From positions 1 through 25,282 of the forward strand of contig JALZWC010000121.1 in assembly GCA_023300255.1 (NCBI GenBank): a stretch of DNA of 25,282 bases, given 5' to 3'. Origin of the DNA: Saprospiraceae bacterium (GTDB lineage: Bacteria > Bacteroidota > Bacteroidia > Chitinophagales > Saprospiraceae). The translations under genes were made by a program, and so were the position numbers. Shown here piece after piece: positions 2,193-21,538 of this stretch (positions are counted from its first letter, which is position 1; each line of letters opens with the position of its first letter). Under the pieces are notes generated by a model. That model saw only the letters and a program-made list of their open reading frames with translations. It made no database searches and was not told the origin of the DNA.

Positions 2193-4388
2193 CTATCGAC
2201 TCAACTCCATTTGATTCCGAACCAATTGAAAATAATGGTTTCTACGAAGGTATAATTCTTGATGTGTTCCTTGTTCAATAATTTCTCCATCTTCAATAAC
2301 TATAATATTATCTGCATTGACAACCGTATTCAGTCGATGTGCTATAATGACAATCGTTCTATCAGTAAACGAATCCTGGATATTATCCATTACTAACATC
2401 TCATTATAAGAATCTAGAGAGTTAGTCGCTTCATCTAAGAACAAATATTTGAAATCTTTATAAATCGCTCGAGCAATTAAGATGCCTTGCTTTTGTCCTT
2501 CGCTTAAGCCGCCTCCGTGGTTGCCAATCATTGTATTATAAGTCAATGGAAATTGCTCTATAAAAGAATGTACATTTGCAATCCTAGCAGCTTTTAGTAA
2601 TTTCTTTTTATCAATTTTATCGCCATCTCCTAATGCAATATTCCTAGCAATGGTATCTGAAAAAATATATCCATCTTGCAAAACGGCACTGCAATGGTCT
2701 CTCCAAAATCGACCTTGAATATTTTTTAAATCCACATCGCCCACCGTAATAGCCCCTTTACTTGGTGGATAAAAACCTAGCAACAACTTTAATAAAGTAC
2801 TTTTTCCACTACCACTAGAACCTACTATAGCCGTCGTTTGTCCTTCTGGTATTACGAGATTAATTTGTTTTAAAACCTCTGGTGAATTAGGGCCATTATA
2901 ATTGAAGCTGACATTTTTTAATTCTAAATCTCCATAGTCTGGAAGAACATCTAATTTATTAATAGAATCTTCTTCTAATTCTCTACGATGAATTTCATTC
3001 ATCCGCTGCACACTTATTCGTGCATCTTCAGACATAATAGCAAACTGTACTAGCTGTTCTACTGGTCCATTTAATTGACCTATAATATATTGAATAGCAA
3101 CTAACACGCCTATTGAAAATTCATGATTCACAACAGCACTAGCAGCAACGACAGTGATTAAAATATTTTGTGTTTCCGTAATTAAAGAAGCACCAACTCT
3201 TTGCTGTTGGTTTATTTTTAAAAACGCTGTTCTAGTAACATACAATTTTGATTGCACTCGTTCCCAATCCCATCGCTTACGGCGTTCTGCATTATGCAGT
3301 TTTATATCTTTCATACCGCTAATCATTTGGACCAAAGCACTTTGGTTAGCAGTAGCATGTTCAAAACGTTTTGCGTCTAGGTTTCGTCGCTTGCCCATAC
3401 AGTAATACAGCCACAAGACATATAGTGTAACGCCAACTAAAAAAATCAAAAATATCTTTACACTATAAATCAGCAAAATAATTCCGAACACAACGAAATT
3501 AGCAACAGAAAATATAGCATGAATAGCATAAGAGGTAAGGAACCGTTCTATTCGTTCATTATCAGAAATACGCTGTAGTATATCTCCTACAAAATGAGAG
3601 TCAAAATAACGCAATGGCATCCGAGTCAACTTGAGTATAAAATCGGACATCAAATTAAGGTTCACCCTAACACCGATATGTACGACAATTATACCCCTAA
3701 ACCACTCTGCTGCTAGTCGAGTAATAAACAGAACCATCTGAGCAATAAGTACTAGCCAAATAAAATTAAGCTGCTTATTATCTACGCCTACATCAATTAA
3801 GGATTGAATCAGAAAAGGGAAAATTCCTTGAAGGATCGATACTAAAAAAACGCCTAATACTAATTGTAGTAATAGTGCTTTATATTTTTTGACATGATCA
3901 AACAAATACCCTAGACCACTACTTTCGGCTTCTCCATCTTCTCTCGCAAAATCAGGTGTAGTTTCCAACATTAGTAAGACCCCACTATCCGCTCCAAATT
4001 GGCGAACATCTGCCCAATGTTTAATAAATGCTTCTTTAGTAATTTTCTCTAATCGAGTGGCGGGATTGCCAACGATTACATGGGTATCCGTAGCCTCATA
4101 AACGACTACAAAATGATTGTTATCCCAATGGGCTATCGCAGGCAAAGGCATATCATCTGCCAGTCGGTTGTAAGGAACCGAGGCCGCTAGCGTTTTTAAA
4201 CCTATTTGTTCAGCAGCATCGCTGATACCTAATAAGGAAACGCCATTTCTATTTAAATAAGTAAGTTCTCGTAAATAATCTAAGGAGTAATATTGACCAT
4301 GGTATTTTGAAACCATGCGCAAGCAGGCTGCGCCACAATCCATCGAATCATATTGCTCATAAAAAGGGAATTTTTTCGATATTTTCAC
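2193..4388 (-). CDS. Peptidase-domain-containing ABC transporter (C39 + TMD + NBD; PCAT/SunT-like)
   Basis: QYDSMDCG (Cys18), HWDNNHFVV (His92), a membrane domain, Walker A GSSGSGKS, signature LSEGQ, Walker B LDEAT and IAHRL. GTG start. Confidence 0.9.
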   Translation of the reverse strand: MKISKKFPFYEQYDSMDCGAACLRMVSKYHGQYYSLDYLRELTYLNRNGVSLLGISDAAEQIGLKTLAASVPYNRLADDMPLPAIAHWDNNHFVVVYEATDTHVIVGNPATRLEKITKEAFIKHWADVRQFGADSGVLLMLETTPDFAREDGEAESSGLGYLFDHVKKYKALLLQLVLGVFLVSILQGIFPFLIQSLIDVGVDNKQLNFIWLVLIAQMVLFITRLAAEWFRGIIVVHIGVRVNLNLMSDFILKLTRMPLRYFDSHFVGDILQRISDNERIERFLTSYAIHAIFSVANFVVFGIILLIYSVKIFLIFLVGVTLYVLWLYYCMGKRRNLDAKRFEHATANQSALVQMISGMKDIKLHNAERRKRWDWERVQSKLYVTRTAFLKINQQQRVGASLITETQNILITVVAASAVVNHEFSIGVLVAIQYIIGQLNGPVEQLVQFAIMSEDARISVQRMNEIHRRELEEDSINKLDVLPDYGDLELKNVSFNYNGPNSPEVLKQINLVIPEGQTTAIVGSSGSGKSTLLKLLLGFYPPSKGAITVGDVDLKNIQGRFWRDHCSAVLQDGYIFSDTIARNIALGDGDKIDKKKLLKAARIANVHSFIEQFPLTYNTMIGNHGGGLSEGQKQGILIARAIYKDFKYLFLDEATNSLDSYNEMLVMDNIQDSFTDRTIVIIAHRLNTVVNADNIIVIEDGEIIEQGTHQELYLRRNHYFQLVRNQMELSR

Positions 4389-14815: not shown

Positions 14816-14954
14816 GCTTAAACGGCTATCATAAATGAGGTTGGTTGCAATTTAAAAGCTACATAACTTTATAAAGGGCTATATAGTTCCGAATAGGGCT
14901 TAAAAAGATTTAATAAACAATAATTGAGGTAGGTAGCAGAGCTATATACTCATA

Positions 14955-14987
14955 TTGTAAGATGTTAAAACTAATTGATTATATTTG
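14955..14987 (+). promoter_or_regulatory. Putative promoter of the HTH/ParB-ATPase/TOPRIM islet
   Basis: TATATTTG at 14980-14987 and TTG at 14955-14957 (22-nt spacer, slightly long). Confidence 0.45.
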
Positions 14988-15000
14988 GTGATAATTACCA

Positions 15001-15179
15001 ATAAAAGTTAAGCCGATTTTAGATAAAAAAGGATTAACTCAGCCTTGGTTAGCAACCAAACTAAACTTATAACATAGTTATAATAAAATATAAGGTAATC
15101 AAATGTAGGAGTGTTATTTAAATTTACTAAAATACTAGATTCGAGAGCTAAAGATTTAATTAAAAAAAGGAAAAAATAG
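15001..15179 (+). pseudogene. Decayed XRE/Cro-type helix-turn-helix regulator
   Basis: One frame reads IKVKPILDKKGLTQPWLATKLNL*HSYNKI*GNQ; a second frame from 15111 reads VLFKFTKILDSRAKDLIKKRKK*. Together they resemble small Bacteroidota HTH proteins of the IKEVL..KG..Q.WLA..LGKSYN...QP....L..IA.IL.V...DLI type, with stops and a frameshift. Confidence 0.6.
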
Positions 15180-15190
15180 ATCTTGAAAAT

Positions 15191-17335
15191 ATGAATAAAG
15201 ATAAAGATAAATATATAGTAAAACATATTGATCGATTGTTATTAGATCCTAATAATTATAGGTTTATTGATAATAAAGACTATCGTTCTATTACTATCTC
15301 AGAAATTGGAGATCCAAGAATACAACAGAGAACACGTAATTTCTTAATAGGAAAAAATGAAGAAGGAATCAGTGATCTAATTACCAGTTTTAAAACTAAT
15401 GGTATTTTAAAACTTGACCCTATACAAGTAAGAGAAATTCCTAAAAGTAAGAACTTCATTGTTATAGAGGGTAATCGTCGTACCGCAGCTCTAAAATATT
15501 TATATGAGGAATTTGAAAAAAATAATGATGTAGGTAAACTTACTGGAGAAAATTTTAAAAGTGTAGACGTTATATTGGTTTCTGATGAAAGTCCTATTCA
15601 GCACTTGATCACAATGGGACTACACCACATAAGTGGGAAGAGGAAATGGAGTTCAGTTAATCAAGCGCAGTTAATTCATGATTTGCGCCATAAACACAGT
15701 ATGAGTGAGGAGAAAATTTGTAGTGCCCTCTCTATTAACAAACATAGCCTTCGGAGAAGTCTTCGTACACTTGCACTTATAGAGAGGTATAAATTAAGTG
15801 ACTATGGCGACCAATTTCAAACCAATAGATATGCAATATTCCAAGAGATTGTTACCAGAGTTGAAATGAAAGATTGGTTAAATTGGAATGAGGCAAATTA
15901 CCGAGCAGACAATAGAATGAATGAAGAAAAATTATTTTCATGGATTTCATTTGAAGAATTTATTGATATAGATGAATATGATGCAAAAGAAACCAAAACG
16001 ATTAAAGAGCCCATTATTACAAAAAGCCATGAAATAAGAGAACTATCAAAATTTATTCACGATAAAGAAGCTATTGAACAAATGGTAGAGTCTAGAAGTA
16101 TTACTGCTGGATTTGCTATTAGTGATGCAGTCGGTGCTTCTCGTTTACAAAAAGCGATTGAAAATATTGAAAAAGAAGTTCAAGCAGCATTTAGCTTTAG
16201 TGAATATTTAGATAATGAAAATTACTATAAAGTAGCAATACTAAGAGATAAACTAGATAGACTAATTCCAAGCAGTAAAAATCTTGGAGAACTTTCACAA
16301 AATAATTTATCTAAATATTTCACGAAAATTAATACTCACTTCACAAGGGTTACCGTTAAAAAATATCGAAAACTTATTAACCTTAATGTAGAACGATTGA
16401 CAAGAGTCAATATAATAGTAGGAGGAAACAATGCTGGTAAAACTTCCCTTATCGAGGTTTTTTATCTATTAACTCGATTAAATAATATCCCATCATTGAT
16501 AGAATTGGAAAAGTATCGAGGACGATTTTATGATCAATTTCATACAAAATGGTTTGATAAGCTTTTTATTGATAGAATTGAAATCGAAAGTATATTCAAT
16601 AATACTCCAATAATTCTTTCAATAGAAAAATTAGAAACGGATGAGAATATAGATAAAAGCCAGTACCTTAATTCAATCACATCAAATGCTATAATCAACG
16701 GGGACGAATTAGAAAGTACTATACATCTATTTAGTAATAAAGAACCAGAACTATATTTTCAAAAAAGCCAATTTATGTGTGAAGCTACTTTTAGTAGCCC
16801 TTATCGTTACAATGGTGCTTTACTAAAAAAAGCTCATGCACGAGCTGTTGAGAATCAATATTTAGATGAAATTATTCAATTTATACAAGATAAATTAGAT
16901 GCTCGTATTCAGAAAATAGAGATGATAAGTATTGAAGACGAAAGTCGTTTTATGGTAAGTTCAACAAATCTTAATCACGCCATAGATATTACAAAATACG
17001 GAGAGGGACTTCAGCGAGTATTTGAAATAGCTTTGTTAATGGGGTATAGTAGAAATGGGATTATATGCATAGATGAACTGGATAGTGCCATACATAAAAA
17101 TTTACTACGTGATTTTACTGAATTTATACAAGCTGCGGCTGTAAAATTTAATGTACAAGTTTTTTTAACTACTCATAGTAAAGAATGTATAGATGCTTTT
17201 GTGGAGAATAACTATCCAGACGATGAATTGACCGCTTTTGCTTTGAGCGAAGAAAATGGTAATGTTGTTTGCAAGCACCTTACAGGAAATAAACTCAAGC
17301 AACTAGTTGATTCGATAAATATTGATATTCGATAA
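15191..17335 (+). CDS. ParB/Srx-like N-terminal domain fused to an ABC-class (AAA_15/AAA_21-like) ATPase
   Basis: N-terminal LLLDPNNYRF, IEGNRR (93-97), HISGKRKW and an HTH-like segment. C-terminal Walker A GGNNAGKT (411-418), degenerate signature YGEG, Walker B IDELD and H-loop TTHS. Confidence 0.78.
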   Translation: MNKDKDKYIVKHIDRLLLDPNNYRFIDNKDYRSITISEIGDPRIQQRTRNFLIGKNEEGISDLITSFKTNGILKLDPIQVREIPKSKNFIVIEGNRRTAALKYLYEEFEKNNDVGKLTGENFKSVDVILVSDESPIQHLITMGLHHISGKRKWSSVNQAQLIHDLRHKHSMSEEKICSALSINKHSLRRSLRTLALIERYKLSDYGDQFQTNRYAIFQEIVTRVEMKDWLNWNEANYRADNRMNEEKLFSWISFEEFIDIDEYDAKETKTIKEPIITKSHEIRELSKFIHDKEAIEQMVESRSITAGFAISDAVGASRLQKAIENIEKEVQAAFSFSEYLDNENYYKVAILRDKLDRLIPSSKNLGELSQNNLSKYFTKINTHFTRVTVKKYRKLINLNVERLTRVNIIVGGNNAGKTSLIEVFYLLTRLNNIPSLIELEKYRGRFYDQFHTKWFDKLFIDRIEIESIFNNTPIILSIEKLETDENIDKSQYLNSITSNAIINGDELESTIHLFSNKEPELYFQKSQFMCEATFSSPYRYNGALLKKAHARAVENQYLDEIIQFIQDKLDARIQKIEMISIEDESRFMVSSTNLNHAIDITKYGEGLQRVFEIALLMGYSRNGIICIDELDSAIHKNLLRDFTEFIQAAAVKFNVQVFLTTHSKECIDAFVENNYPDDELTAFALSEENGNVVCKHLTGNKLKQLVDSINIDIR

Positions 17336-17340
17336 ATTTT

Positions 17341-18231
17341 ATGACACAAATAATTACAATCTTCTGCGAAGGCCCTCATGATGTTGCATTTATTTATCGA
17401 ATGCTAAAATCAATAAGTTATGAATCTTACGCCTCCTGTAAAATAGGGAAGTTACCTCCCCCTTTCAATCAATTAATTGCTAATGAAATTGAAAAAAGTG
17501 ATATTAAAAACCTTAATCTTATTGAAGTTAGAAGAGGGTTTTTACCTGCCAAGGTTCTACAAAAAGAAGATAAATATATATTCCTGTATTCACTCGGTGG
17601 AGATAGCAAATCACAAGCTCGACAAAAAATGGTAGGTGATATTCTATCTTTCATTTCTGAGCCAGGAGAAATTAGTGTAATACCAGAAGGAACAAATTTT
17701 TCAGTTATCTACCTTTTTGATTCAGATAATCAAGGAGTTGGTGTTAGATTAAATGCTCTTAACCGAGAAATTAATAGAAGCTTAGGCGCAAAAGGAACAA
17801 TAAATTTTACATCGAATGGTAGTTTTCAAATAAAAAATAAAATTAATTTTGGAGCGTTTATATTTACTGGAACAGATAATGACACTGGAACTTTAGAATC
17901 TATATTACTGCCTTTAATGAAAGAGGGAAACAATACAATATTTGAAGCAGCTAAACATTACATTAGTACAAATCATGACCCTAAGCGTTTATTTTCATTA
18001 AAAACTAGTATAGATCCTACAACTAAGTTAACTATTGAACAAAGAGGTACAAGCTCAAGAGATAGATATAAATTTTATCCATCAAAATCAATTATAGGGA
18101 CTGCTGGACAGTTACAACGTTCTGGTAAATCCAATGTCGTTTGTATAAGTGATTCTGATTATATAACAATTGATAAAATACAACGCAATCCTAAATGTAT
18201 TGAGATAGTGGAATTTTTAAATAAAATTTAA
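17341..18231 (+). CDS. TOPRIM-motif protein (DUF3226-like), putative nuclease partner of the ATPase
   Basis: IFCEGPHD (E10), GGDSK, YLFDSD (D127/D129) and GTLESIL; starts 5 nt after the ATPase stop. Confidence 0.65.
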   Translation: MTQIITIFCEGPHDVAFIYRMLKSISYESYASCKIGKLPPPFNQLIANEIEKSDIKNLNLIEVRRGFLPAKVLQKEDKYIFLYSLGGDSKSQARQKMVGDILSFISEPGEISVIPEGTNFSVIYLFDSDNQGVGVRLNALNREINRSLGAKGTINFTSNGSFQIKNKINFGAFIFTGTDNDTGTLESILLPLMKEGNNTIFEAAKHYISTNHDPKRLFSLKTSIDPTTKLTIEQRGTSSRDRYKFYPSKSIIGTAGQLQRSGKSNVVCISDSDYITIDKIQRNPKCIEIVEFLNKI

Positions 18232-18280
18232 TAAACTAATGCTCTAGGTGTATTGCAACCGCATAGAAAATCTATCCCTT

Positions 18281-21200
18281 TTAAAACAAAACCGCCTTCT
18301 TATTCAAAACAACCTCCACCATACCCCCACCCATCGGATAGTTAATAAAACAGCGAACTCGACCATCTCCGAAAATAGTAGCAATACTTTCGGCAGCTAG
18401 ATAAAGCCAAGTAGATAAAGCGAGCGCTTTATTTTTCCATTGCTTACTGTCACCAGTGAAACCACTATTTTGTATAATCACCCATCCTTTGTCTGTCTCC
18501 AAAACTAGATCCACTATTTTATCAAATAATCGCCCTTTGTGGTGGTGACGAATTGGATATTTTTTAAAAATCTTAGTCGGCTGAAATTCTTTGTCTAAGT
18601 AATCTAAATACCTTTCCGTATGATCCACTAAAAGTTGGTACTCCAGTAGCTCTTCTACTCCATATCTTTCTAATAAATCCTTTGCTATGTTTTCTCGATC
18701 TTGTCTCTCCATATCCTTACTATCTGCGGTAAGAAAGGCTTTAATAGCTTTTGCTAACACATAGTCTCGACCTTCCTCAGCAGGAATAATAGCTTTACCG
18801 TATTGACGAATTTTCGATGGTCTTGGCGCAATCTCTGTCGGATAACTTTCTCGTTCTACATCTATTTCATAAGGAATAAAAACGCCCTTCCCTCGCCGTT
18901 CTGTAAGAAAAGTGATTTCAGGTATTGCTAGTTCAGAGGTAGTAAAATCTCTAGGAAAAGGAGTCGTGTTTGTTTCTTTTAATAAAATTTGGTCATTCCA
19001 AACCCAAGGCGATTCATCCGTAAAATGATCTAAAGTTGGCACCGATTCATCTCCTTTATGCCATACTCGATTCAGCCATTTGGTTGGTACGCCTCTAGTT
19101 GGAAATACTAAGTAATCTCTAGCTCTTGTGACCCCTACATATAAGACCCTCGCTTCTTCTGCTAAAGCATTTGCTTGGGCTTGAACTTTTACCTTGCTGG
19201 AATTTAAACGTTCTTCTAGATTGGTTCCTCCAATTTGGTCGGAGTATGGATTAACCCAATAGCGCAACCAACGATTTCCGAGGATGTTATTTAAATCTAC
19301 TTCCTTTGTTTCTGCGACGATCGCTGTTCCCCAGACGTTATCTCTTAATTTGCCTTCCAAGGAATGGCAGACTACTATAGGCCACTCTAATCCTTTACTT
19401 TTATGATAAGTCATTACATTAACAGAATCCGCTCCAGCTCCTGAGCTTTGCAAATCTGCCTTATTGTAATCCATTTCATTAAGCCAAAGTAAGAAGCCTC
19501 CTAAGGTCGCTGCAGAATGTAATCTATTACAGGCATCTTCGTATTTTAAAGCCAATTTTCTAAGCTCGTCAATATTAGCTAATCGCTGTTCTTTATTCCC
19601 CCAAGTAGAGATGATCCGTCGTAGATCTAATTCGTCTAGTACTAGATTTATAATTTCGGAAGAGGATAGTTCTTTTACTTGATCTCTTAATTCTAATAGC
19701 TGTTTGACATATGGATTATCTTGCCCCCATCTCCACTCTTGAGTAGCTTCTTTTTCTACTTCTTTTAAAAATTCTAAACGTTCATCAACGATTGTGGCTA
19801 AGGCTTGCCCGGAAGCTAGTTTTAAAATTTCTGCTACAGATAAAGGATCCTTTTTACTAACAATAAATTTTAGACACGCCAGTACTAATTTTGATTCGGT
19901 CCGCTGCAATAAGCCATTCCTAGAGATCGCTGCCTTCAATCCAGCTCGATGCAACGCTTCTGCCATTTCTCCACAAGCTATATTAGAACGACAAAGAATA
20001 GCGACATCTCCTGGGCGAGCTAATCGGGGTTCTGCCTCTTCTTTTGGAAAAACCAAAGCACCTTCTGCTAACATGTTTTTAATAGCCGTAGCTATACTAT
20101 TTTCCATCCAAGGTTTACCTGGAGCTCTTCCTTTTCCATCATACTCAAAATGCCAATGCTGTAGAGGCTTTTTTAAGAATTTTAATTCCTCTTGATCCTT
20201 TACTAAAATTTTTAAGGTTTCCTCTGTTCGCTTAGGACTTAGTGCGACTTGTTCTTTAGGTAAATTATCAAAAGCTTTGGTAAAAAGTCCGTTGGTAGCA
20301 TGAACGACTCCCGTTCTAGATCGCCAAGAAAATTCTTGAATATCCTCTTCTTTCACGCCACCTGTTTGTTCTATGATGGCTTGCATCAATGCGGGGTCTG
20401 CCCCTCTAAAGCCGTAGATGGATTGTTTCGGATCACCTACCCATATAGAATGTTTAGCAAACTGAGATAACTTTAAAAATATTTCTAATTGAATAGGACT
20501 GGTATCCTGAAATTCATCTACCATTAAGAGGTCTAGTTCCTCTTTCAAGACCATTTGCACCTGCTTGTTTTCCAATAACCTTTTGACATGTAATTCCATG
20601 TCAATATAATCAATAAGCCCTCGACGTTTTTTATAAGAATCGTACTCTTCTATTGCCTCAATAGCAATATCAAAGATAGTATCAATAAAGGCTTTTATAT
20701 CTTCTTGAAATTCAGGCATAGACTCATGCACTCTAGCTAACTCCTGTAATTCAAAAATAGCATCTTTACTTTTTGCGCCTACTTTTATTTTGCTAATTTT
20801 CACCCATTCATACCACTCTAGTCCATTTCCTAAATTTAGTTTACGTTGTATTTTTTTAAGATCGTCTCCTCCCTTTTCTGTCACCTTCGTACTATCTTCG
20901 TTTCCTTCTAATGTTAAAATTGTTGCTTGTAATGTTCTTTTCAAATCATCCGTTAAGCCCTGAAAAGTTTTACCCGTTTTCTTTCCTAAATATTGTTTGA
21001 AGGACTTGAAAGACTCTTCTTTACTTTTTTGTAAAACTTCCAAAGAGAAATCATTAGAACGAGCGATATCTGTAACATTCTTTACTTCTTTTCTCCAATC
21101 ATAAGGCCCTCTTTTATTTAAGCCTAGCTTAGTGCTTAGCTCTTCCATTTGTGCCATCCGATTAGCCGTCAATACCGTCGTCAAAGATTGATTGAATAAC

Positions 21201-21538
21201 AGTTGGTGATCTTCATCTGCTATAATATCTACCTGAGGAGATACGCCTGCCTCAAAAGCAAACCGCTTTAGTAACTGGACACCTAATCCATGTACCGTTC
21301 CAATCATCGCATTCGTCAATTGGTCTGCTTCATCAGATAGCTGTTGTTCTAATAATTTCACCCGAACTCGTTCTTGTAATTCTGCTGCTGCTTTTTTAGT
21401 AAAGGTAGTTGCTATAATTCCACTAGCTCGAACGCCTCCTTTTAATAAAGCGACCATCTCTTCTGTTAGTCGATAAGTTTTACCACTTCCTGCTCCTGCG
21501 GAAATGATCTTGATATTTTGGAAAGAAGTGTTTGTCAT
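18281..21538 (-). CDS. UvrD/AddA-like superfamily 1 helicase with degenerate C-terminal PD-(D/E)XK-like domain
   Basis: SAGAGSGKT, TFTKKAA, VDEFQD, VGDPKQSIYGFRGAD, SWRS, TYHKSKGLEW and YVGVTRAR motifs. Confidence 0.88.
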   Translation of the reverse strand: MTNTSFQNIKIISAGAGSGKTYRLTEEMVALLKGGVRASGIIATTFTKKAAAELQERVRVKLLEQQLSDEADQLTNAMIGTVHGLGVQLLKRFAFEAGVSPQVDIIADEDHQLLFNQSLTTVLTANRMAQMEELSTKLGLNKRGPYDWRKEVKNVTDIARSNDFSLEVLQKSKEESFKSFKQYLGKKTGKTFQGLTDDLKRTLQATILTLEGNEDSTKVTEKGGDDLKKIQRKLNLGNGLEWYEWVKISKIKVGAKSKDAIFELQELARVHESMPEFQEDIKAFIDTIFDIAIEAIEEYDSYKKRRGLIDYIDMELHVKRLLENKQVQMVLKEELDLLMVDEFQDTSPIQLEIFLKLSQFAKHSIWVGDPKQSIYGFRGADPALMQAIIEQTGGVKEEDIQEFSWRSRTGVVHATNGLFTKAFDNLPKEQVALSPKRTEETLKILVKDQEELKFLKKPLQHWHFEYDGKGRAPGKPWMENSIATAIKNMLAEGALVFPKEEAEPRLARPGDVAILCRSNIACGEMAEALHRAGLKAAISRNGLLQRTESKLVLACLKFIVSKKDPLSVAEILKLASGQALATIVDERLEFLKEVEKEATQEWRWGQDNPYVKQLLELRDQVKELSSSEIINLVLDELDLRRIISTWGNKEQRLANIDELRKLALKYEDACNRLHSAATLGGFLLWLNEMDYNKADLQSSGAGADSVNVMTYHKSKGLEWPIVVCHSLEGKLRDNVWGTAIVAETKEVDLNNILGNRWLRYWVNPYSDQIGGTNLEERLNSSKVKVQAQANALAEEARVLYVGVTRARDYLVFPTRGVPTKWLNRVWHKGDESVPTLDHFTDESPWVWNDQILLKETNTTPFPRDFTTSELAIPEITFLTERRGKGVFIPYEIDVERESYPTEIAPRPSKIRQYGKAIIPAEEGRDYVLAKAIKAFLTADSKDMERQDRENIAKDLLERYGVEELLEYQLLVDHTERYLDYLDKEFQPTKIFKKYPIRHHHKGRLFDKIVDLVLETDKGWVIIQNSGFTGDSKQWKNKALALSTWLYLAAESIATIFGDGRVRCFINYPMGGGMVEVVLNKKAVLF

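Follow-up and report, generated by a model that had tools for sequence, protein, structure and literature searches.

Several described defense systems combine an ATP-binding cassette (ABC) ATPase with a nuclease of the Toprim class. AbiL, RloAB, and PARIS form the recognized class in which the nuclease is a separate protein, and PARIS alone among them has been mechanistically dissected (review). Its trigger, according to abstracts and a review, is the anti-restriction protein Ocr and its substrate is tRNA. Menshen has a related logic in which NsnA is a ParB-DUF262 sensor, NsnB an ABC ATPase, and NsnC a nuclease, some NsnC proteins carrying the Toprim-class domain DUF4276 or RloB. Finally, the PDC systems are described by Payne et al. 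(bioRxiv 10.1101/2024.01.29.577857) as 145 candidates, whose prediction came from their embedding in BREX, DISARM, and type I restriction-modification (RM) loci (“guilt by embedding”). Here we describe a two-gene cassette in a 25,282-nucleotide (nt) contig of a Saprospiraceae bacterium (JALZWC010000121.1, assembly GCA_023300255.1; “the window” below), which belongs by its profile matches to one of these candidates, PDC-M38.

Both proteins of the cassette were matched end to end by models of PADLOC-DB v2. Gene 1 residues 3-714 aligned with positions 4-714 of the 715-position PDC-M38A model PDLC04607 (E = 7.5e-285), and gene 2 residues 2-295 aligned with positions 3-290 of 293 in the PDC-M38B model PDLC04615 (E = 6.8e-105). 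The order of PDC-M38 is also kept, with A followed by B, adjacent and on one strand, and no structural difference was seen from the catalogued system, whose A model includes the ParB-like head described below. On these matches the locus is a copy of the catalogued candidate PDC-M38 and not a new kind of system. A sequence-only reading of this DNA had proposed a new system and had itself named a full match to an existing model as grounds for dropping the claim; we therefore withdraw it. That reading also knew of no described system with the same three-module layout, a statement that needs correction since Menshen distributes a ParB sensor, an ABC ATPase, and a nuclease over separate genes. A literature search for “PDC-M38” and “DUF3226” returned no main-text mention and no published domain dissection of PDC-M38. 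Two things are new here, as judged from the comparisons below: the head of gene 1 is also found free-standing with Mrr-type nucleases, and a short form of the gene 2 family bridges to RloB and Toprim.

An open reading frame (ORF) check of the window confirmed the coordinates first proposed: both genes are intact, lie on one strand, and are separated by a gap of 5 nt. Their features are as follows (aa, amino acids; HTH, helix-turn-helix).

15191..17335, + strand: gene 1 (PADLOC PDC-M38A), 714 aa, a ParB_N + HTH head joined to an ABC ATPase.
15209..15640, + strand: ParB_N-like domain of gene 1, aa ~7-150, with the invariant motifs DPNNYR and EGNRR (the ParB GERR-box).
15653..16264, + strand: HTH and helical region of gene 1, aa ~155-358, which completes a portable module of ~360 aa.
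16340..17332, + strand: ABC ATPase of gene 1, aa 384-714.
Residues of gene 1: ABC ATPase motifs, with Walker A at 411-418, the signature-like G604-E-G606, Walker B/D-loop at 624-631 including E629, and the H-loop at H662.
17341..18231, + strand: gene 2 (DUF3226 / PDC-M38B), 296 aa, a Toprim-like putative nuclease.
17368-17370, 17719-17721, and 17725-17727, + strand: codons of the gene 2 acidic residues E10, D127, and D129, respectively.

Every motif quoted in the sequence-only reading was present and conserved family-wide in alignments of 118 gene 1 and 109 gene 2 sequences, and because of this conservation both genes look intact and under selection. In the ATPase half of gene 1 the invariant residues were G416-K417-T418, G604-E-G606, D628-E629-D631, and H662, so that Walker A, signature-like motif, Walker B, D-loop, and H-loop are all conserved. 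This half also matched the Pfam families AAA_21 (1.6e-14) and AAA_15 (7.3e-12) above their cut-offs, which upholds the earlier call of a complete ABC-class ATPase. Its closest named relative in PADLOC was AbiLi (E = 2.7e-31, with the whole AbiLi model covered), followed by AriA of PARIS (1.7e-17), and there were weaker matches to HEC-01A, NsnB (4.2e-13), and GajA. A Foldseek search with the AlphaFold2 (AF2) model of gene 1 found retron/Septu PtuA, Rad50, SMC heads, OLD (6p74), and GajA (8u7i) at E values of 1e-8 to 1e-11. As far as profiles and the predicted fold tell, residues 384-714 are a complete OLD/Rad50-class ABC ATPase of the AbiL/AriA kind.

The head of gene 1 was assigned by profile comparison. 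Its invariant residues in the same alignment were D19, N21, N22, Y23, R24, E93-G-N-R-R97, H146, G149, K150, and W153. As a single sequence the head matched ParB_N (Pfam, 7.3e-5) and TIGR00180 (2.9e-9), both below their cut-offs. However, when a profile of 45 N-half sequences was compared by hhalign with 19 aligned sequences of genuine chromosomal ParB from related genomes, a probability of 94.6% was obtained (E = 6.7e-8, 121 columns). This alignment placed G94-N-R-R97 of the head on the G-E-R-R motif of ParB and continued through the ParB HTH to residue 197. In a PDB profile search with the head, Noc/ParB proteins were four of the five top matches, all of them weak, and the neighbors of the N-half in a protein atlas were stand-alone ParB_N proteins, ParB_N+AAA_15+AAA_21 fusions, and ParB_N+HTH_ParB partition proteins. 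In the AF2 model (pLDDT, the predicted local distance difference test score, 83.9) residues 360-372 form a disordered linker between head and ATPase; the Foldseek search, made with the full-length model, was dominated by ABC ATPases and is silent on the head.

These results support the earlier description of the N-terminus as ParB-like with an HTH. Its comparison with the DUF262 domain of SspE was imprecise, as the head aligned with ParB_N and DUF262 gave no Pfam match in it at E up to 1. By profile alignment, the N-terminal ~360 aa are thus a canonical ParB_N + HTH module outside the DUF262 branch.

The second gene belongs to a single family, in which all 109 members matched DUF3226 (PF11536). 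E10, G11, H13, D14, D127, R136, and E186 were invariant among these sequences and D129 was kept in at least 90%. A confident AF2 model (pLDDT 90.4) placed E10 directly after strand 1 (residues 3-9) and D127-x-D129 at the end of the strand 119-127, which is the Toprim arrangement. In local hhalign alignments the glutamate and the DxD motif lined up with the CEG and DxD motifs of RloB and the OLD Toprim domain. Foldseek with this model gave one significant PDB match among the 50 listed of 576, PH0156 (2p62), a crystal structure of DUF3226. PH0156/2P62 is also the top HHpred match (>97%) for the AriB protein of a lactococcal PARIS system in a published table (PMC11381338).

A clearer connection was provided by short partners of gene 1 homologs, 183-188 aa in length, in which the ~110 C-terminal aa of the long form are missing. 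They were found at three loci.

L085:4941-5507: short DUF3226 partner in an Aliarcobacter metagenome-assembled genome (MAG).
L098:2477-3037: short DUF3226 partner in a Methyloprofundus MAG.
L103:3724-4275: short DUF3226 partner in a Mariprofundaceae MAG.

The short forms had weak Pfam and PADLOC matches to Toprim (2.6e-4), OLD-like_TOPRIM, RloB, AbiLii, and the Toprim region of GajA. Compared by hhalign, they reached 85% with RloB (E = 6.3e-6) in an alignment that keeps the CEG and DxD motifs in register, and 46% with the OLD Toprim domain, where the positive control (RloB against OLD Toprim) scored 47% and a ParB negative control 0.05%. By these alignments the short form is the clearest sequence bridge from DUF3226 to RloB and Toprim. 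Taken with the motif positions, we regard a Toprim-class assignment of gene 2 as likely. The Toprim partner of the sequence-only reading therefore stands as far as E10 and D127xD129 occupy Toprim-like positions in 109 sequences and in the model, while its link to the recognized Toprim families is indirect. Other searches added little. A PDB sequence search with either protein or with the gene 2 family profile gave nothing useful, Foldseek of the gene 2 model against the BFVD viral structures gave no match below E 0.04, and gene 2 itself did not match the AbiLii and RloB profiles.

Compared to the described systems, the cassette shows both shared and distinct features. AbiL (AbiLi/AbiLii) and Campylobacter RloAB are likewise two-gene pairs of an ABC ATPase with a Toprim-class nuclease, although AbiLi and RloA have no ParB/HTH head. 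PARIS shares the logic of an ATPase that holds a separate Toprim effector, and the gene 1 ATPase matches AriA models as noted above; on the other hand, AriA carries no ParB head, and AriB is a DUF4435 protein while gene 2, in which Pfam found no DUF4435, belongs to DUF3226. Menshen shares the combination of a ParB-superfamily sensor, an ABC ATPase transducer, and a nuclease effector, with a weak NsnB match, but it consists of three genes with a DUF262 + ParBDB sensor, a DUF3696 tail on NsnB, and inPIN effectors, whereas the cassette has two genes and a ParB_N + HTH head; no Pfam or PADLOC matches to DUF262, DUF3696, or PIN were found in its proteins. OLD and GajA, which are structural neighbors of the ATPase half, share the ABC ATPase and the Toprim nuclease, but these lie on one polypeptide that has no ParB head, unlike the separate genes and the head seen here. 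The earlier comparison with PARIS and OLD was a reasonable one.

The pairing of the two genes is conserved well beyond this genome. We found at least 952 clusters of gene 1 homologs at 90% identity, nearly all of them 705-715 aa long and annotated merely as “AAA family ATPase”. In a survey of one genome per species, relatives occurred in at least 225 species, most of them Bacteroidota, the remainder being from Campylobacterota, Spirochaetota, Desulfobacterota, Ignavibacteriota, Verrucomicrobiota, Planctomycetota, Acidobacteriota, Bacillota, and Proteobacteria. In all 80 fetched loci a DUF3226 gene lay directly 3' of gene 1 on the same strand. The partner was of the long form in 77 of these, at a gap of -47 to +11 nt, and of the short form in the other three, where it overlapped the stop codon of gene 1. 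This linkage excludes a chance juxtaposition of the two genes in the window. The distribution is patchy: in a sample of 401 genomes from the phylum, only four carried the full ParB-ATPase fusion.

The nearest upstream gene encoded a type I HsdS subunit in 21 of 70 loci, and the nearest downstream gene a type I HsdR subunit in 18 of 72. The cassette therefore often lies inside a type I restriction operon, with hsdS on one side and hsdR on the other, the kind of embedding on which the prediction of PDC-M38 was based and one that is frequent among its relatives. PrrC and Rlo genes show the same embedding in type I hsd loci. The cassette in the window, unlike the PDC-M38 copies embedded in RM or BREX loci, is a solo insertion among housekeeping genes. 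In comparison with the empty site in the nearest genomes of the same genus, nucleotide homology ended at 14910 and restarted at 18283. The two closest relatives kept the order helicase-EamA-BirA-RsfS-FtsH, and in them the helicase and EamA genes are 263 or 800 nt apart, compared to 3.5 kb here. Because homology breaks at these positions and synteny is kept around the empty site, we conclude that the cassette is a 3.37-kb insertion (14911-18282), recently and horizontally acquired, at a site unoccupied in the two closest relatives. The guanine-cytosine (GC) content was ~0.30 within the cassette and 0.36-0.39 in the flanks.

A search with a profile of the N-half showed that the head is not confined to the fusion. 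It retrieved 3053 clusters at 50% identity, 325 of them at E up to 1e-30, and the best 150 matches fell into two length classes, ~700-745 aa (fused) and ~355-380 aa (free-standing). In all four informative contexts the free-standing head was followed by a translationally coupled nuclease of ~250-300 aa with an Mrr_cat (PD-(D/E)xK) domain. An N6/N4 DNA methyltransferase gene lay upstream in three of them (L006, L007, and L208) and was absent at L210.

L006:779-4113, - strand: head + Mrr_cat locus.
L007:129-3344, + strand: head + Mrr_cat locus.
L208:901-4398: head + Mrr_cat locus.
L210:5001-6982: head + Mrr_cat locus.

In PADLOC the free-standing head matched only part of PDC-M38A and, weakly, PD-Lambda-5_A, while its Mrr nuclease matched only PDC-S02, again weakly. 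The pair seems to be uncatalogued as a system of its own. Conversely, PADLOC holds PDC-M38A models that consist of the ATPase without a head (PDLC04608-04611), and under PDC-M38 the source table of Payne et al. (bioRxiv 10.1101/2024.01.29.577857) gives two types of cassette; the partners of unfused, ATPase-only relatives were mostly unrecognized by local profiles. Since the head occurs alone with Mrr_cat nucleases and the ATPase occurs without the head, the head is, on the evidence of these architectures, a portable add-on unit that evolution has coupled to different nucleases. Its coupling to Mrr_cat nucleases is easier to reconcile with sensing or targeting directed at DNA than with a catalytic role.

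The domain identities, the intact catalytic motifs, the strict A-B linkage across phyla, the defense-type context, and the insertion polymorphism that we observed are consistent with a defense function. The copy in the window is probably functional and the cassette is probably defensive. We consider it likely that this horizontally acquired PDC-M38 member is a defense system of the AbiL/RloAB/PARIS kind, in which an ATPase and a Toprim-class nuclease are combined with DNA sensing by the ParB-like head. In the uninfected cell, the ATPase of gene 1 would keep the DUF3226 nuclease of gene 2 inactive. The ParB_N + HTH head would be the sensor that binds invading DNA or, as the frequent hsd embedding suggests, possibly a DNA-mimicking anti-restriction protein. 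Binding by the head would be coupled to the ATPase cycle, and the metal-dependent nuclease would then be released or activated. It would cleave nucleic acid, either tRNA as in PARIS or DNA, and the infection would stop. The defense activity as such, the trigger, the substrate, and the outcome, whether abortive or direct, are inferred.

Several observations weigh against this reading. PDC-M38 itself is a computational candidate according to the source paper (Payne et al., bioRxiv 10.1101/2024.01.29.577857). A tblastn search with gene 1 found no copy in phage and plasmid collections, both of which under-sample these phyla. The nuclease function of gene 2 is putative, as it was deduced from motif geometry and transitive links because the long DUF3226 form had no significant match to a Toprim profile or fold: chains of OLD, GajA, and AriB were absent among the 50 Foldseek matches listed of 576, and hhalign of the long family gave 2% for RloB, 3% for the OLD Toprim domain, and 0.7% for DUF4435, none of them significant, although the method is insensitive with these alignments, its positive control reaching just 47%. 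In the head, the glutamate of the GERR motif is replaced by N95, with both arginines kept, and the Box III region reads HHISGKRKW instead of ENxQR so that the ParB Box III is not conserved. For both of these reasons a gating of the head by nucleotide in the manner of cytidine triphosphate (CTP), while plausible, is uncertain.

It could be speculated that the cassette stands guard as a back-up to restriction-modification, follows the logic of PrrC and PARIS, and is triggered by phage anti-restriction proteins and not by DNA. The ParB/HTH head would then be a bait for DNA-mimic inhibitors such as Ocr and ArdA, or else the cassette would keep direct watch on the type I enzyme. Some ~25-30% of the loci lie between hsdS and hsdR, the response to Ocr described in those abstracts makes PARIS, the best-understood pair of ATPase and Toprim nuclease, a precedent, and a DNA-binding surface may be a natural target of a DNA mimic. 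However, most loci, including the one in the window, are away from any RM system so that the cassette must work alone, and the coupling of the head to Mrr-type DNA nucleases argues for recognition of DNA. We regard this explanation as unlikely. Less probable still is that the ParB-like head is itself an enzyme, with the ATPase and the DUF3226 protein serving as regulators or accessory factors and the latter not being a nuclease effector. In its favor, nucleoside triphosphatases and nucleases are described in the ParB/Srx superfamily, Osa being one example and DndB a proposed one; polar and basic residues are invariant in the head as well (D19, N21, N22, R24, E93, R96, R97, H146, and K150); and the long DUF3226 form is tied to Toprim only indirectly. 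An enzymatic head is nonetheless hard to reconcile with a gene 2 family in which the glutamate and D127 are invariant and D129 is nearly so, all at Toprim positions in 109 sequences. The ATPase-only PDC-M38A variants indicate that the head was added to an ATPase-DUF3226 core, and the dedicated Mrr_cat nuclease of the free-standing form suggests that the head is not the effector.

Another possibility is that the cassette has no role in defense at all and is a module for DNA maintenance, akin to partition, in which a ParB loads an SMC-like ATPase, or a toxin-antitoxin addiction module. ParB loads SMC, an ABC ATPase, in chromosome segregation, and this established knowledge offers a precedent; in addition, the Pfam name of AAA_21 refers to a putative AbiEii toxin from a type IV toxin-antitoxin system, and the defense role of PDC-M38 is a computational prediction. 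We hold this to be very improbable. A bona fide chromosomal ParB is encoded elsewhere in the genome (C934), the gene 1 ATPase has no long SMC coiled-coil arms in the model, no ParA partner gene lies beside the cassette in the window, and the sparse distribution, the presence or absence of the locus between close relatives, and the embedding in RM operons are all against it.

Returning to a defense system with a ParB-like sensor, a more specific proposal can be made tentatively, and we give it a low probability: the head may be a nucleotide-gated DNA clamp or scanner like partition ParB, put to new use in sensing infection for an ATPase-Toprim effector and, independently, in gating Mrr-type restriction nucleases. 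If so, loading on foreign DNA, or capture by a DNA-mimic anti-restriction protein, would lead by way of the ABC ATPase to release of the DUF3226 nuclease, and “ParB-licensed” nucleases would form a class that has not yet been described. The cassette is widespread, sharply conserved, and sited where defense genes sit, and the presence of a ParB_N + HTH head on an AbiL/PARIS-class ATPase raises the question of whether a ParB DNA-loading module can serve as an immune sensor. The pair of free-standing head and Mrr nuclease offers a second, simpler system for this question.

The remaining features of the insertion and its surroundings are as follows.

14911..18282, + strand: inserted segment, 3.37 kb, a leader and two genes without a mobility gene.
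14911..15190, + strand: AT-rich cassette leader with a candidate promoter motif and two small palindromes.
18281-21538, - strand: UvrD-like helicase of 1085 aa, convergent with the cassette, with partial matches to the GajB model.

The flanking genes are housekeeping genes, in the order FtsH, class II aminoacyl-tRNA synthetase, FKBP, RsfS, BirA, and EamA on one side, then the cassette, and the UvrD-like helicase, ribosomal proteins L13, S9, and S2, and EF-Ts beyond it. The helicase was considered as a GajB-like third component and rejected, as it is a conserved core gene that is also present at the empty site and is kept in 14 of 15 same-genus genomes. Gabija has a dedicated UvrD-like partner, whereas the UvrD-like gene next to the cassette is a convergent core gene.

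Within the leader, a candidate Bacteroidota -7 motif, TATATTTG (TAnnTTTG), lies at 14980-14987; this motif is not enriched across the window. Downstream of it are two perfect palindromes, TTGGTT-AGC-AACCAA at ~15045-15059 and TTATAAC-ATA-GTTATAA at ~15067-15083. These could be operators for the HTH-bearing product of gene 1. As RNA structure the leader hairpins were insignificant (z = -0.31), and scans for sigma-70 promoters and terminators gave no signal above shuffled background. A 17-nt, AT-rich imperfect direct repeat, AAAAAGATTTAATAAAC at 14902-14918 and AATAAAATTTAATAAAC at 18220-18236, brackets the insert and could be a recombination scar or a chance occurrence in AT-rich DNA.

At a distance from the cassette, window positions 2193-4388 (- strand) encode a 731-aa protein with Peptidase_C39, ABC_membrane, and ABC_tran domains, an ABC transporter of the bacteriocin/peptide-export type; its weak PADLOC match to mad3 is a generic ABC ATPase similarity. 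Five matches to the RloB family (Toprim) were found on other contigs of the same MAG (C437:5425-6108, C374:3405-3914, C80:1103-1642, C740, and C919), and the genome therefore holds several further AbiL/Rlo-like ATPase-nuclease modules.

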